Assembly (NCBI GenBank): GCA_001304315.1
Contig: LJUW01000063.1
Location: 1 to 12,595, forward strand
DNA: 12,595 bases
Direction of reading: 5' to 3'
Source: a candidate division Zixibacteria bacterium SM23_73_2
GTDB lineage: Bacteria > Zixibacteria > MSB-5A5 > SM23-73-2
Below, one piece after another: positions 208 through 11,574 of this stretch. The notes under the pieces were generated by a model. That model was given only the letters and a program-made list of their open reading frames with translations, ran no database searches and was not told the origin of the DNA. The translations under genes and the position numbers were made by a program. How positions within the stretch are numbered: the first letter of the stretch is position 1; the number at the start of each line of letters is the position of its first letter.

Positions 208-534
208 AAATCCTCCTTTGAAATTGAAATATTAACTACTTGTGAAATTCTGTCTGAATGTTATGCAACAATTAAGAATATGTTGTGGAATCCCCCATCT
301 TATTTTATCGGTTATAAACGGAAAAGGTGAAAGGGCTGTGCAAAAAATTGAAAATTCAATCTTTAATTAATCTTCAACCTAAAGATAGTAATTTTCTTGT
401 TTATAAGATTAGATGCTATTCTGGGAATCTATGTACTTTTTTATAAATTTCACAAAAAAATAGTAAAGGTACAAGGTATCCACCTTTTTATATTAGATAC
501 AGGTAGGTCGGATCTCCAAATCTGACTACAGGAA

Positions 535-585
535 AGTCGATTTTAGAAAATCGATCCAAAGGATCAATCCTTCGGATCGACCTAC
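535..585. repeat. Left copy of a 26-bp direct repeat (AGTCGATTTTAGAAAATCGA + CCTACT), interrupted by a 22-bp hairpin insert (555-576)
   Basis: An exact 20-mer AGTCGATTTTAGAAAATCGA (535-554) recurs at 767-786. The 10-mer TCGACCTACT recurs at 576-585 and 783-792. With 555-576 removed, the two copies are identical over 26 nt. The 20-mer contains the inverted repeat TCGATTTT-AG-AAAATCGA. The insert TCCAAAGGATCAATCCTTCGGATCGA can fold as a nested hairpin (TCGATCC..GGATCGA outside, AGGAT-CAA-TCCT inside), and TCGA is duplicated at its edges. Confidence 0.6.
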
Positions 586-604
586 TATGATATTTTGCTT
601 ACCA

Positions 605-652
605 CGCCAGGTCAGCCTACTCCTGGCCAGGGGGTGACCTGGTGGGCACAAG
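605..652 (+). ncRNA. GC-rich extended hairpin motif, copy A (GCCAGGTCAGCCT ... GCACAAG); candidate structured RNA or REP-like element
   Basis: CCAGGTCA (607-614) pairs perfectly with TGACCTGG (635-642). Inner pairs are CC/GG and CCT-GGCC-AGG. The region is about 70% GC against an AT-rich background. The 13-mer GCCAGGTCAGCCT (606-618) and GCACAAG (646-652) both recur at 8647-8704. A T5 run follows at 656-660. Confidence 0.3.
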
Positions 653-664
653 CTGTTTTTCGTT

Positions 665-694
665 AGTGCAGGAATTGGAATTCCTGCACTTTTT
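665..694 (+). terminator. Rho-independent terminator, plus-strand orientation (AGTGCAGGAATT-GG-AATTCCTGCACT + TTTTT)
   Basis: A perfect 12-bp stem (665-676 / 679-690) is followed directly by T690-T694. The minus-strand complement has no U-tract, so it reads on the plus strand only. Confidence 0.65.
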
Positions 695-695
695 A

Positions 696-726
696 AAACA
701 GGTGGGGGAAATAGATTTCCCCCACC
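696..726 (-). terminator. GC-rich hairpin GGTGGGGGAAA-TAGA-TTTCCCCCACC with a U-tract on the minus strand; convergent partner of the 665-694 terminator
   Basis: An 11-bp perfect stem (701-711 / 716-726) has loop TAGA. On the minus strand it is followed immediately by UGUUUUAAAAA (complement of 690-700). On the plus strand the nearest T-run (737-743) is 10 nt away. Confidence 0.4.
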
Positions 727-766
727 AACTAATAAGTTTTTTTGTTCAAATTTTGAACAGTAATAG

Positions 767-792
767 AGTCGATTTTAGAAAATCGACCTACT
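767..792. repeat. Right, uninterrupted copy of the 26-bp direct repeat (AGTCGATTTTAGAAAATCGACCTACT)
   Basis: Exact match to 535-554 plus 577-585. The arms GTCGATTTT/AAAATCGAC form a 9-bp inverted repeat. It lies 232 bp downstream of the left copy. Confidence 0.6.
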
Positions 793-8299: not shown

Positions 8300-8557
8300 A
8301 TGCCGGAGGAAGAGGTTGGAAAGATTTCCGATTACTTCGCCAAGATCGGCGTTGCCGCGATCGAGTTAACCGGGACTCTATCCGTTGGCGATACCATTCA
8401 CATCAAAGGTCATACCACCGATTTCACCCAGAATGTGGATTCGATACAGATCGAGCACCAGCAAGTTGAAAAGGCCAATCCCGGCGATTCAATCGGAATC
8501 AAAGTAAAGGACCGGGTAAGGGATAACGATATCGTTTACAAGGTGACCGAGGAGTAA
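8300..8557 (+). CDS. Small standalone beta-barrel protein resembling translation-factor domain II (EF-Tu D2-like)
   Basis: The 85-aa product has VGDTIHIKG...VDSIQIEHQQVEKANPGDSIGIKV...VRDNDIVYKV, which follows the G.V..G....GD...I......V.SI......V..A..GD..G..L pattern of EF-Tu/IF2/SelB domain II barrels. RBS AGGAGG is present. It starts 18 nt after the SPFH gene. Confidence 0.5.
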   Translation: MPEEEVGKISDYFAKIGVAAIELTGTLSVGDTIHIKGHTTDFTQNVDSIQIEHQQVEKANPGDSIGIKVKDRVRDNDIVYKVTEE

Positions 8558-8618
8558 AAGCTTTAGAATTATTGATTTTAACTTTTGTTTACACTCCAAT
8601 GTTATCTAAGTGCCTGAC

Positions 8619-8704
8619 GAGTCACCCGACTCGAGAGGGTTCGTCCGCCAGGTCAGCCTGCCCCAGGTCGGGCAGGCCGGTCAGGGAAACCTGGGGAGCA
8701 CAAG
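8619..8704 (+). ncRNA. Structured GC-rich leader, copy B of the GCCAGGTCAGCCT...GCACAAG motif, upstream of the 8731 CDS
   Basis: It contains hairpins CGAGTC-ACCC-GACTCG (8619-8634), GCCTGCCC-caggtc-GGGCAGGC (8656-8677) and UCAGG-GAAA-CCUGG (8681-8694). It shares the 13-mer GCCAGGTCAGCCT (8647-8659) and GCACAAG (8698-8704) with 606-652. It ends 26 nt before the ATG. Confidence 0.3.
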
Positions 8705-8730
8705 ACCGAAATTGTTAAAAAAGGCTAAAG

Positions 8731-9237
8731 ATGATTAATTTGGATGACCTTTCCCGCAAACAGCTTGTCGGGATGCTGGATGATTTTGCCAAAAACTGGC
8801 TGGCTCACGATGGCTTGTGGTTTCAGGCGGTGGAGAAAAGATACGGGATGGATGTCGCCATCCAGTGCGACAGAGCTGCCTGGGAACACTTTACCGTTAT
8901 CGAGGCGAAAAGGATAATGAAACGCCATAACATACCCCAGGGAAGCGGGCTTTCCGGATTGAAAAAAGCTCTGGGATACCGGCTTTACAGCAGATTGAAC
9001 AAGCAGGAGATAATCGAGGAGAAAGAGAGAAGTTTTGTCTTCAGAATGAACGACTGCCGGGTTCAATCCGCACGCAAGAGAAGGGGACTTCTCGACTTTC
9101 CCTGCAAGCCAGTGGGAATAGTCGAATACAGTGAATTTGCTCGGGCGATCGATCCCAGGATCCGCACCACCTGCCTTAACTGCCCCCCGGATGAGCACCC
9201 GGATGAATTTTACTGCGCCTGGTTGTTTGAGATTTAA
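8731..9237 (+). CDS. Hypothetical cytosolic protein (168 aa) with a C-terminal Cys/His cluster (C..C...C.PPDEHPDEFYC)
   Basis: It has protein-like composition and runs into the bidirectional terminator at 9323-9358. The antisense ORF 8725-9240 is judged a shadow. No confident family assignment is possible. It resembles small DUF proteins with the WLAHDGLWFQAVE motif. Confidence 0.55.
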   Translation: MINLDDLSRKQLVGMLDDFAKNWLAHDGLWFQAVEKRYGMDVAIQCDRAAWEHFTVIEAKRIMKRHNIPQGSGLSGLKKALGYRLYSRLNKQEIIEEKERSFVFRMNDCRVQSARKRRGLLDFPCKPVGIVEYSEFARAIDPRIRTTCLNCPPDEHPDEFYCAWLFEI

Positions 9238-9360: not shown

Positions 9361-11574
9361 TTAAGGGCACCCTGGTTTTGGTCCTCCCTTTAAATGATAA
9401 TTAGCTAAATAGATCGCATCCGCTAACTCAAATTTACCGTCGCAGTTGACATCCCCTGAACCCAGAGGACAGGGTGCTGTTCCTGATTTCAAAAGATAGT
9501 TGGCTAAATAGATGACATCGGATAGATCGATTTTGCCGTTATCCTGCATATCCCCCATGGCATAGAGATATTCGAAAGCTCCGATATCGATTCTTCTTCC
9601 TGCACTATCTGGAAAATCATACCAGGGATCTCCTGCATCGATGCAGGCTGAGCTGCAAAGAAGAGCATAATTTATGGTATCGGAGACAATAGGATCTCTT
9701 ATTATGTTGTAAAAACTATCGCATGGGATTCCATTGAAATTAGTGCCCCAGGTGGTATCACCGATTCCTATAACATCGATAAAATTCTCTCCATTGCCCC
9801 ACACATCGTTGAAGAACACAGAAGGCAGAGCATTCCACTCACAAACTATCCCCGATTCATCGTTTTTGGCAATGATGTTATTTTTTATATCCGGGTTTGA
9901 TTCTCCAAAACAATAGATCCCAGTCATCAGAGCATGATCTGGATCAGAATAATTATAGGCAATAGTATTATTTGTGATCTTTGGTGAGGAGTTGTTTATG
10001 CAGTAAATCCCTGCTCCCCAGGTAGGTGCCTCGACCCAGTAGGAGAAATTATCATATATGATATTTCCAATGATTTCCGGTGAACTCGAATTGCAGTGGA
10101 TCACTCCTCCATCATCGAGTATCGTGTTTGACCTTAAGATGTTATGTTTTATGGTGGGTGAGGAGTTTTTACACCAAACTCCCGGTCCCGCACCGCTCCC
10201 CGCTCTTCCATTCTGAATGGTAAATCCCTGAATTATGGAATTTGAATCCTCCCCGGTTGTACAGGAAACCACCATACCAGATCCTCCTGCGTCTATGATA
10301 GTCGATTTTATGGAATATGGATCGAGGTCAAAAATAAAACCACTTGCTACACATATGTGCTTGCCTTTAAAAGTAATATTCTCGTAATAAGTTCCAGATA
10401 CCGCCAGGATAGTATCCCCCTCAATTGCCTCATCGATTCCTTTCTGGATCGTTCTGAATGGGTTGTCTTGAGTTCCATTGCCGGTTGAATCATCGCCGGT
10501 TATGGAAACATGCAGTATTCCCGGTAGAAGATGGCAGCCCATCCCAAAGGCTCCCATATCCACACCTCCCTGTCCGGCTCCAACACAGGGAGAGATCAAG
10601 TTTAGATAAAAGTTTTCAGCTTCTGAATCGCAGAAAAGAGGATCTGCGGATATGCAACCTTGGCTTGGGTTTACCCCCTCATAATTGGAGGGATTGTTGT
10701 TCCAGACGTCGTTGTATCCGATCAGGGGAGTGGTTGATTCCTCGAGATATATTCCCGCACCGGAATCAGAATCTACTACGATGTTGTTAAGCACGGTGGA
10801 AGAGCCGGTATAGTATATACAGATCCCTCCTCCATATGCTGCACCGTTTTTTACGATGGTATTGTTGATCACCTTATTGTTATACCCCTCCTGTCCTGCT
10901 ACCAGGACTCCTCCCCCGTGACTGGAAGTGCTGTTTTTGAGGATGAGGTTGTTTTCAATTTTGGTACCTTTACAATGTAACAGGTGGATACCAGCGCCAT
11001 TTGCAGCTTGGTTTAATGCAATCAGATTATTTCTGATCAATGCGTCACAGTTTCCTAGAAAAATTCCTCCTCCGCAAAACAGGGCCTGGTTACTCAGGAT
11101 AACATTTTCTTCCAGAACAGGATGACCCGAATGACAGAAAATACCAGCCCCGTGCCCAAGGGATCTGGTCTTATTTTCCCGGATGATGTTGTTTTTTATC
11201 CTGGGCGAGGAATTTTGGCATTTAATCCCCCCACCCTGAAAAACATTGTGGGCGCCAGTGACGGTGAAACCGTCCAGAATCGAGGAGGTATCCTCACCCG
11301 AGGTAAATATTACTATGCTGAGACCATCCTGCGCCTTAGTTATGGTAGTGCTCTCTGGCCCAGCCTGGCTTTTGACCAGTATCGCCTTACCTATAAAGTT
11401 TATGTGCTCGTAATAGGTTCCCGGAGCTACCAGAACGGTATCCCCATTTACTGCCCCATTTATCCCCGCCTGAATGGTGGATGAATCAGCCGGAACGTAG
11501 ACGATATTTGCTTTAACGGTAAATGGAACCAGAAATAAAAGGGAAAAAAGTAAAAGCATTTTTAGTTTGACCAT
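9361..11574 (-). CDS. Secreted right-handed parallel beta-helix (pectin-lyase-fold, NosD-like) repeat protein with an internally duplicated module and a C-terminal dockerin-like tandem repeat
   Basis: It has a signal peptide (MVKLKMLLLFSLLFLVPFTVKA). Two homologous N-terminal modules are seen (NIVYVP..DSSTIQAGINGAVNGDTVLVAPGTYYEHINFIGKAI versus ILHVSITGDD...TIQKGIDEAIEGDTILAVSGTYYENITFKGKHI). Many NN.I..N beta-helix repeat rungs follow. The C-terminus GDMQDNGKIDLSDVIYLANYLLKSG...GDVNCDGKFELADAIYLANYHLKGG consists of two dockerin-type Ca-binding repeats. RBS GGAG is present. Confidence 0.8.
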   Translation of the reverse strand: MVKLKMLLLFSLLFLVPFTVKANIVYVPADSSTIQAGINGAVNGDTVLVAPGTYYEHINFIGKAILVKSQAGPESTTITKAQDGLSIVIFTSGEDTSSILDGFTVTGAHNVFQGGGIKCQNSSPRIKNNIIRENKTRSLGHGAGIFCHSGHPVLEENVILSNQALFCGGGIFLGNCDALIRNNLIALNQAANGAGIHLLHCKGTKIENNLILKNSTSSHGGGVLVAGQEGYNNKVINNTIVKNGAAYGGGICIYYTGSSTVLNNIVVDSDSGAGIYLEESTTPLIGYNDVWNNNPSNYEGVNPSQGCISADPLFCDSEAENFYLNLISPCVGAGQGGVDMGAFGMGCHLLPGILHVSITGDDSTGNGTQDNPFRTIQKGIDEAIEGDTILAVSGTYYENITFKGKHICVASGFIFDLDPYSIKSTIIDAGGSGMVVSCTTGEDSNSIIQGFTIQNGRAGSGAGPGVWCKNSSPTIKHNILRSNTILDDGGVIHCNSSSPEIIGNIIYDNFSYWVEAPTWGAGIYCINNSSPKITNNTIAYNYSDPDHALMTGIYCFGESNPDIKNNIIAKNDESGIVCEWNALPSVFFNDVWGNGENFIDVIGIGDTTWGTNFNGIPCDSFYNIIRDPIVSDTINYALLCSSACIDAGDPWYDFPDSAGRRIDIGAFEYLYAMGDMQDNGKIDLSDVIYLANYLLKSGTAPCPLGSGDVNCDGKFELADAIYLANYHLKGGPKPGCP

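Follow-up and report, generated by a model that had tools for sequence, protein, structure and literature searches.

GTAG-tagged repetitive extragenic palindromes (REPs), together with their REP-associated tyrosine transposases (RAYTs), are already known from Proteobacteria, Cyanobacteria, Chloroflexi and the Planctomycetes-Verrucomicrobia-Chlamydiae (PVC) superphylum, as set out in the 2013 survey by Di Nocera et al. (PMC3733652). The present study concerns a 12,595-nt contig (LJUW01000063.1, assembly GCA_001304315.1), hereafter the window, from the metagenome-assembled genome (MAG) of candidate division Zixibacteria bacterium SM23_73_2. In a 718-nt intergenic gap between an FBPase_3 (fbp) gene and a pspC-liaF-like operon, the window contains a 26-mer, AGTCGATTTTAGAAAATCGACCTACT, once intact and once split by a small hairpin. 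With a probability of about 90%, this 26-mer is one unit of a family of GTAG-tagged REPs and REP doublets forming hairpins (REPINs) belonging to this Zixibacteria genome and served by its own RAYT. The copies in the window, a head-to-head (HH) doublet at 503-586 whose right unit bears the insert and a lone right unit at 767-792, are separate copies of the repeat and not the ends of one element. What is new is the host, which belongs to a phylum absent from that survey's list, and the RAYT, which was previously unannotated. RAYT-associated GTAG-REP/REPIN systems are thereby extended to Zixibacteria, a candidate phylum known only from metagenomes.

The survey text describes the GTAG super-family as having a stem of 5-13 bp, a loop of 2-20 nt, an unpaired GTAG tag and a predominance of HH dimers, with clustering in mosaic intergenic regions, several families per genome and association with a RAYT gene. 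The repeat studied here, termed family A, fits these features, including the occurrence of variants with an enlarged self-complementary loop; judged from the survey text alone, it is not among the families GTAG-1 to GTAG-24 (PMC3733652). The E. coli 'REPtron', consisting of REPs or bacterial interspersed mosaic elements (BIMEs) and the transposase TnpA_REP (PDB 4ER8; PMC3479197), shares with the present system a GTAG 5' of an imperfect hairpin, extragenic copies, inverted pairs, and a single Y1/HUH transposase gene flanked by repeats, and the catalytic HUH, Tyr, Asn and His of the two enzymes align. Whereas the E. coli stems are GC-rich and bulged, the family-A units are rich in AT and combine a perfect 9-bp stem with a loop of 2-4 nt; they belong to a Zixibacteria MAG, and the system is known here from sequence. 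In Pseudomonas fluorescens, two inverted REP units with a short spacer likewise form the replicating unit (the REPIN), and singlets are read as remnants (PMC3116915, PMC3337134). The diverged RAYT homologues found in the present loci occur with one and the same repeat family, consistent with the long-term association known for REPIN-RAYT systems. Unlike those REPINs, the doublets here are heterodimeric, and the loop-proximal stems of their halves differ (GGATTTCCAAATCC versus ATTTTAGAAAAT). The subterminal hairpins and 4-nt guide sequences of the insertion sequences (IS) of the IS200/IS605 group provide a further parallel, as there too a Y1 HUH enzyme recognises a single-stranded hairpin and an adjacent tetranucleotide. 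However, no transposase lies inside the repeat here, the units are 24 nt and not IS ends, and the associated protein scores only 33 bits against the IS200 equivalog model (cut-off 55).

Dispersal and structure of the family-A repeat

Family A was searched for with an exact 20-mer common to both window copies, among one genome per species, and with the exact 24-mer GTCGATTTTAGAAAATCGACCTAC in metagenomes. The 20-mer matched five different contigs of one Zixiibacteriota MAG, CSMAG_2715. Four further matches, in two Gammaproteobacteria MAGs, a Bacillales MAG and Saccharicrinis, had neither the GTAG/CTAC tag nor a partner unit, and were set aside as unrelated or chance occurrences. The 24-mer was found in 23 contigs of sediment and subsurface origin, among which about 17 distinct flanks occur. 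The family-A unit thus stands at about 20 unrelated extragenic sites in Zixibacteria contigs, with at least eight units in the SM23_73_2 population (two in the window, two beside the RAYT gene, and one each in L023, L027, L031 and L033), all counts being lower bounds that include exact matches only. Every exact unit (29/29) lies outside open reading frames (ORFs) of at least 100 aa, and many lie 5-45 nt past the 3' end of a gene. The 26-mer is therefore not a sequence confined to this locus and fixed there in synteny. The initial annotation had proposed a mobile repeat, and named a REP-like insertion among its options. The proposal holds for the 26-mer, but not for the module of about 230 bp between the copies, whose interior (587-766) does not recur alongside the 26-mer anywhere else.

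Most copies of the unit form the right half of an HH doublet of about 56 nt, GTAGGTCG..CGAC-spacer-GTCGATTTTAGAAAATCGACCTAC, with the consensus GTAGGTCG(G/A)nATTCCAATnnCGAC, a 7-16-nt A-rich spacer and GTCGATTTTAGAAAATCGACCTAC. On the opposite strand, the right half reads GTAGGTCGATTTTCTAAAATCGAC, so that the doublet is a pair of GTAG-tagged hairpins facing each other head to head, each with its tag on the outer side. There are 13 distinct doublets of this form, including that at window 503-586. In both unit types, the stem is 9 bp and the loop 2 nt (alternatively, 8 bp and 4 nt). The GTAG is invariant in 13/13 left units, and CTAC closes the right unit in every copy, an invariance that is in part an ascertainment effect, CTAC being within the search pattern. 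Across the 13 doublets, 97-99% of stem cells are paired, and three of the nine left-unit pairs have changed on both sides, switching between A-T, G-C and T-A with the hairpin preserved. The covariation score was reached by none of 500 shuffles, a control that can be inflated by related sequences, and the point therefore rests mainly on the pair types.

On re-reading, the 26-mer is exact at 767-792, as first described, and is itself an inverted repeat with 9-bp arms GTCGATTTT/AAAATCGAC. It has no further match in the window at up to three mismatches and none in 200 dinucleotide shuffles. The split copy, placed earlier at 535-585, is real but ends at 586; its halves are AGTCGATTTTAGAAAATCGA (535-554) and CCTACT (581-586). 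They are separated by the 26 nt TCCAAAGGATCAATCCTTCGGATCGA (555-580), which comprise a 22-nt near-palindrome and a second TCGA, in agreement with the earlier description of a hairpin with TCGA duplicated at its edges. A third unit, inverted and diverged, GTAGGTCGGATCTCCAAATCTGAC at 503-526, had been overlooked, and turns 503-586 into an HH doublet. The left unit of this REPIN-like doublet (+ strand) consists of the GTAG tag and the hairpin GTCGGATCT-CC-AAATCTGAC, and aligns with the left units of 12 doublets elsewhere. It is followed by the spacer TACAGGAAA (527-535), which in the other copies is A-rich and 7-16 nt long, and by the right unit (536-585, - strand), corresponding to the split copy. 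The intact singlet at 767-792 also lies on the - strand, reading GTAGGTCGATTTTCTAAAATCGAC at 791-768, and ends 19 nt upstream of the -35 box of the pspC-liaF promoter.

The RAYT gene and a proposed mechanism

A search of all fetched loci for HUH and Y-x2-NP motifs identified one ORF, of 170 aa, present in L026, L030 and L036. This ORF scores 143.5 bits (cut-off 80, E 4e-42) against the NCBIfam equivalog NF047646 REP_Tyr_transpos ('REP-associated tyrosine transposase'), matches Pfam Y1_Tnp, and aligns near full length with E. coli TnpA_REP (PDB 4ER8, E 2e-24). Its HFH motif stands opposite the E. coli HMH, and its Y-x3-N-x3-H opposite Y115, N119 and H123, the active-site residues of the E. coli enzyme (PMC3479197). 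The gene corresponds to AMJ90_06540 in the MAG of Zixibacteria bacterium SM23_73_2, where its product is entered as 'hypothetical protein'; a function can now be predicted for it. Family-A doublets lie on both sides of the gene in direct orientation, the upstream one ending 17 nt before the start codon and the downstream one beginning within the stop codon. The RAYT and window loci occur in the same ENA samples. RAYT homologues of 60-63% identity (L047, L049) likewise have variants of the family-A unit on their flanks, which is consistent with a long-lived association between RAYT and REP.

The unit consists of the GTAG tag and a hairpin with a 9-bp stem, with GTCGA/TCGAC as the stem base, and usually two such units, head to head with the tags outside and a short A-rich spacer between them, make up the doublet of about 56 nt, of the REPIN or HH-dimer type. 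In the proposed mechanism, by analogy with E. coli TnpA_REP, the RAYT, an HUH/Y1 enzyme, would bind the hairpin as a folded single strand, along with the GTAG tag, and would cut and rejoin single-stranded DNA, whereby units would be spread and rearranged over evolutionary time. The same analogy suggests that it is this RAYT that mobilises the family-A units. Next to the pspC promoter, the repeats may have a local effect, either insulating or terminating transcription, or supplying protective RNA hairpins.

Apparent repeat turnover at orthologous pspC loci

The initial annotation had suggested an alignment of orthologous fbp-pspC intergenic regions. In none of the relatives recovered is fbp adjacent to pspC, but the pspC-proximal 230 nt or so could be compared, in L022 and L045 (about 77% LiaF identity) and, less closely, in L043 and L044 (83%). 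The sigma-70-type promoter of the pspC-liaF operon (811-838, + strand), which has the perfect consensus TTGACA-16-TATAAT and lies outside the repeat, is kept in all four, and the hairpins at 667-695 and 701-726 are conserved with it in orthologous upstream regions. The family-A singlet is absent from all four. In its place, L022 and L045 have a unit of a different GTAG-REP family (family D, GCACGAATAAATTCGTGCCTAC), in the same orientation and 12 nt further from the promoter than the window's family-A unit, and L043 and L044 have, at the promoter-proximal site, an apparent decayed remnant of a family-D unit. In L022, the whole upstream region forms a mosaic in which at least five GTAG-hairpin families occur, two family-A doublets among them. 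As read from these alignments, REP units appear to turn over above a conserved scaffold at orthologous sites, and the upstream region of pspC is better annotated as several repeat families in mosaic, superimposed on a conserved promoter and a pair of older hairpins, than as a regulatory module or a mini-element.

Flank switches were also observed at the repeats. An ENA contig, L001, carries an identical pspC locus with a wholly different left flank (L001 1-63 compared with window 440-502), joined exactly at 503, where the doublet begins; the junction reflects either mis-assembly through the repeat or a genuine rearrangement at it. Four Logan contigs of the pspC locus all start at window 666, directly before the 667-695 hairpin. 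In two related populations, a singlet REP site has a common right flank and different left flanks (L032 compared with L031 and L035), and L032 has an additional REP variant, GTAGGTCGATCCGAAGGATCGA, which is missing from L031 and L035, so that REP content varies between strains. Because contigs of the window's population break or change flank exactly at repeats (L001 at 503), this family is likely to lie behind fragmented and mis-joined MAGs in the lineage.

Alternative explanations

Several points weigh against assigning the 26-mer to a RAYT-served REP family. No clean pair of filled and empty sites for the family-A unit was found within one species, since this population's four full-length contigs do not differ anywhere in the intergenic gap (100% identity). 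The RAYT is assigned to the window's MAG by binning (shared locus-tag prefix AMJ90). The copy number per complete genome rests on the lower bounds given above, the constancy of the right unit owes something to the search pattern, and the 22-nt insert is unaccounted for by the REP model itself.

Of the alternatives, the one that survives best is compatible with the REP explanation, and holds that the region encodes small RNAs in which the repeats serve as structural modules, with a + strand transcript running over the doublet, the GC-rich hairpin and the 667-695 terminator, and a - strand transcript over the singlet, the 743-759 palindrome and the 726-701 terminator. On either strand, folding is far stronger than in shuffled controls (z -6.6 and -7.3), the terminator-like hairpins face each other, and REPs elsewhere are often transcribed, according to the survey text (PMC3733652). 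On the other hand, strong folding is expected from any REP cluster, no convincing promoter was found for either putative RNA, and the different upstream flank in L001 makes a fixed promoter doubtful. Nor was there an Rfam match, either for the whole window at the gathering threshold or, with E up to 10, for the stretches 150-1000 and 8540-8760, where nothing credible was obtained (best E 0.29-0.48, far below gathering scores). A small RNA locus is accordingly a possible but rather unlikely addition to the REP family.

It is far less probable that the palindromes are operators, bound by a dimeric transcription factor that controls fbp and the divergent pspC-liaF genes, or else a larger regulon. 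Such a role could be read from the 9-bp-arm palindrome ending 19 nt upstream of a perfect -35 box, and from the second, diverged pair further upstream, but most other copies lie directly after stop codons, on either strand relative to the neighbouring genes, the repeats flank the RAYT gene, and relatives retain the promoter without the family-A unit. Moreover, the unpaired GTAG is invariant while the stem bases covary, which fits recognition of a hairpin and not base readout of a duplex.

That the 26-mers represent a target-site duplication around, or the att-like termini of, a miniature inverted-repeat transposable element (MITE) or mini integrated element of about 230 bp (535-792), as the initial annotation had also considered, is hardly credible in spite of the two direct copies, 232 nt apart and exact over 26 nt bar the insert, since the unit occurs alone or in a 56-nt doublet at about 20 other sites and never with the interior 587-766, the supposed duplication has the same sequence at all of these sites, the inverted third unit at 503-526 pairs with the left copy, the interior hairpins (667-726) are conserved in orthologues without a right-hand 26-mer, viral contigs gave no match, and in a BLAST comparison of the 718-nt gap with all fetched loci the only matches were to REP units and, among orthologues, to the promoter and hairpins. 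The two terminator-like hairpins are ancestral to the pspC upstream region of the relatives, and the stretch between the copies is therefore not cargo. An origin from a phage or integrative element was likewise rejected, as neither the 24-mer nor the 22-nt insert matched viral contigs.

Nested palindromes

The insert in the right unit of the doublet is the near-palindrome TCCAAAGGAT-CA-ATCCTTCGGA (555-576), which lies in the stem of the unit, and the exact position of which can be shifted by 4 nt owing to the duplication of TCGA (551-554, 577-580). On the - strand, the unit reads GTAGG-TCGA-(TCCGAAGGAT-TG-ATCCTTTGGA)-TCGA-TTTTCTAAAA-TCGAC; here the tag is preserved along with the initial bases of the stem, and a new hairpin with 14-bp arms stands beside the tag, followed by the old hairpin. 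The initial annotation had taken the insert for a second, smaller mobile hairpin. This is unproven, as no second copy was found at up to four mismatches in about 170 kb of related loci, nor any match among viral contigs. Its only relative is a short REP variant, GTAGGTCGATCCGAAGGATCGA in L032, with which it has its first 19 nt in common (GTAGGTCGATCCGAAGGAT, - strand). From this overlap, the insert may be a fusion or slippage product of REP variants at their common TCGA, followed by extension of the palindrome, without having to be a mobile element in its own right; the survey text already describes REP variants whose self-complementary loops are enlarged (PMC3733652).

A second nested palindrome was noticed in the related loci. 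At up to one mismatch, about 170 kb of Zixibacteria loci contain six copies of a 15-nt GC palindrome, (G)CCTGCCCGGCCAGG(G) (L022 ~1486-1514, L011, and four times in L014), against none in 50 shuffles, and it is nested in five different host hairpins, among them a family-B REP stem. In L022, it occupies the loop of the orthologue of the window hairpin 667-690, of which the window's own form, GTGCAGGAATT-GG-AATTCCTGCAC, is the empty counterpart. The nesting of tiny palindromes in hairpins thus has some support in this lineage, but not for the window's 22-nt insert. A speculative generalisation is that Zixibacteria hairpins and REP units are targets of smaller palindromic insertions of 15-22 nt, with junctions that are ambiguous or duplicated over 1-4 nt, the window insert being one case and the 15-nt GC palindrome a second, multi-copy one; on balance we consider this improbable. 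If it were true, and if a single-strand DNA enzyme directed to hairpins, for instance the RAYT, were responsible for moving the insertions, no smaller mobile DNA units would be on record for bacteria. The nested palindromes are otherwise a minor curiosity, and the sole part of the system that might lead to something new.

Other features of the window and related loci

Through exact look-up, the window proteins were identified as KPL01553-KPL01561 (locus tags AMJ90_07645 to AMJ90_07690) of Zixibacteria bacterium SM23_73_2. The FBPase_3 gene (1-207, - strand) is divergent from the pspC-liaF-like operon, which starts at 926 on the opposite side of the gap, and beyond the operon lie hutU, hutI, lptE and a porV-like gene. 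A tRNA/tmRNA scan of the window found no gene.

Between the two copies of the 26-mer, the GC-rich hairpin, the convergent terminator pair and the palindrome of the initial annotation are all present. The GC-rich hairpin (601-652, + strand) is the 3' half of a second dispersed motif with two hairpins (..CCGCCAGGTC-loop-GACCTGGCGG-GCACA..), with its loop enlarged here. The terminator-like hairpin at 667-695 (+ strand), GTGCAGGAATT-GG-AATTCCTGCAC with TTTTT, is ancestral to the locus and lies outside the REP family. The hairpin facing it (701-726, read 726-701 on the - strand) consists of GGTGGGGGAAAT..ATTTCCCCCACC and the T run TGTTTTAAAA, and is conserved in the orthologous L022 and L045 and more loosely in L043. 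The palindrome at 743-759, TGTTCAAA-T-TTTGAACA, with 8-bp arms, may from its sequence be either a decayed left REP unit or older local sequence. It aligns with the left unit of L011; however, its TGTTCAAAATTTGCACA is found also in L043 and L044, both of which are without the family-A unit.

The full form of the two-hairpin motif is about 75 nt, with GTGCC, CTGTCGnGTC-CCCT-GACnCGACAG and then CCGCCAGGTC-loop-GACCTGGCGG-GCACA. Some pairs show compensatory changes, the loops are enlarged in the window copies, and the motif has no Rfam match. One complete copy occupies window 8609-8700, within the 5' leader of a DUF6125 gene, and further copies are found in L011 (~575-645), L014 (~515-600, ~740-770 and ~930-990) and L022 (~1795-1875, - strand).

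Beside family A, at least six further families of GTAG-tagged hairpins were observed in L011, L014, L015, L018, L022, L026, L030, L034 and L037, for example GTAGCAGAGCCTTTACGGCTCTG paired with GTAGCGGAGCTTTTATAGCTCCG, GTAGGGACAGGTCTTAAGACCTGTCT paired with GTAGGGACCCATATGGGTCC, GTAGGCACGAATTTATTCGTGC, and GTAGACCCACGTTG..CAACGTGGGT; several of them form HH doublets. The fetched MAG loci also contain a cobalamin riboswitch (L014 4982-5162, - strand) and a tRNA gene (L011 7784-7854, + strand), and in L042 (~95-150) a singlet REP lies within about 20 nt of the 3' end of an apparent tRNA gene, on the opposite strand. Towards the far end of the window, a - strand ORF of 737 aa (9361-11574) contains an internal 67-nt direct repeat (9374-9440 and 9473-9539, 72% identity). 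Its repeated domains are similar to ORFs beside REP units in L011, L012, L014, L031 and L035, and it looks like a member of a repeat-domain protein family.

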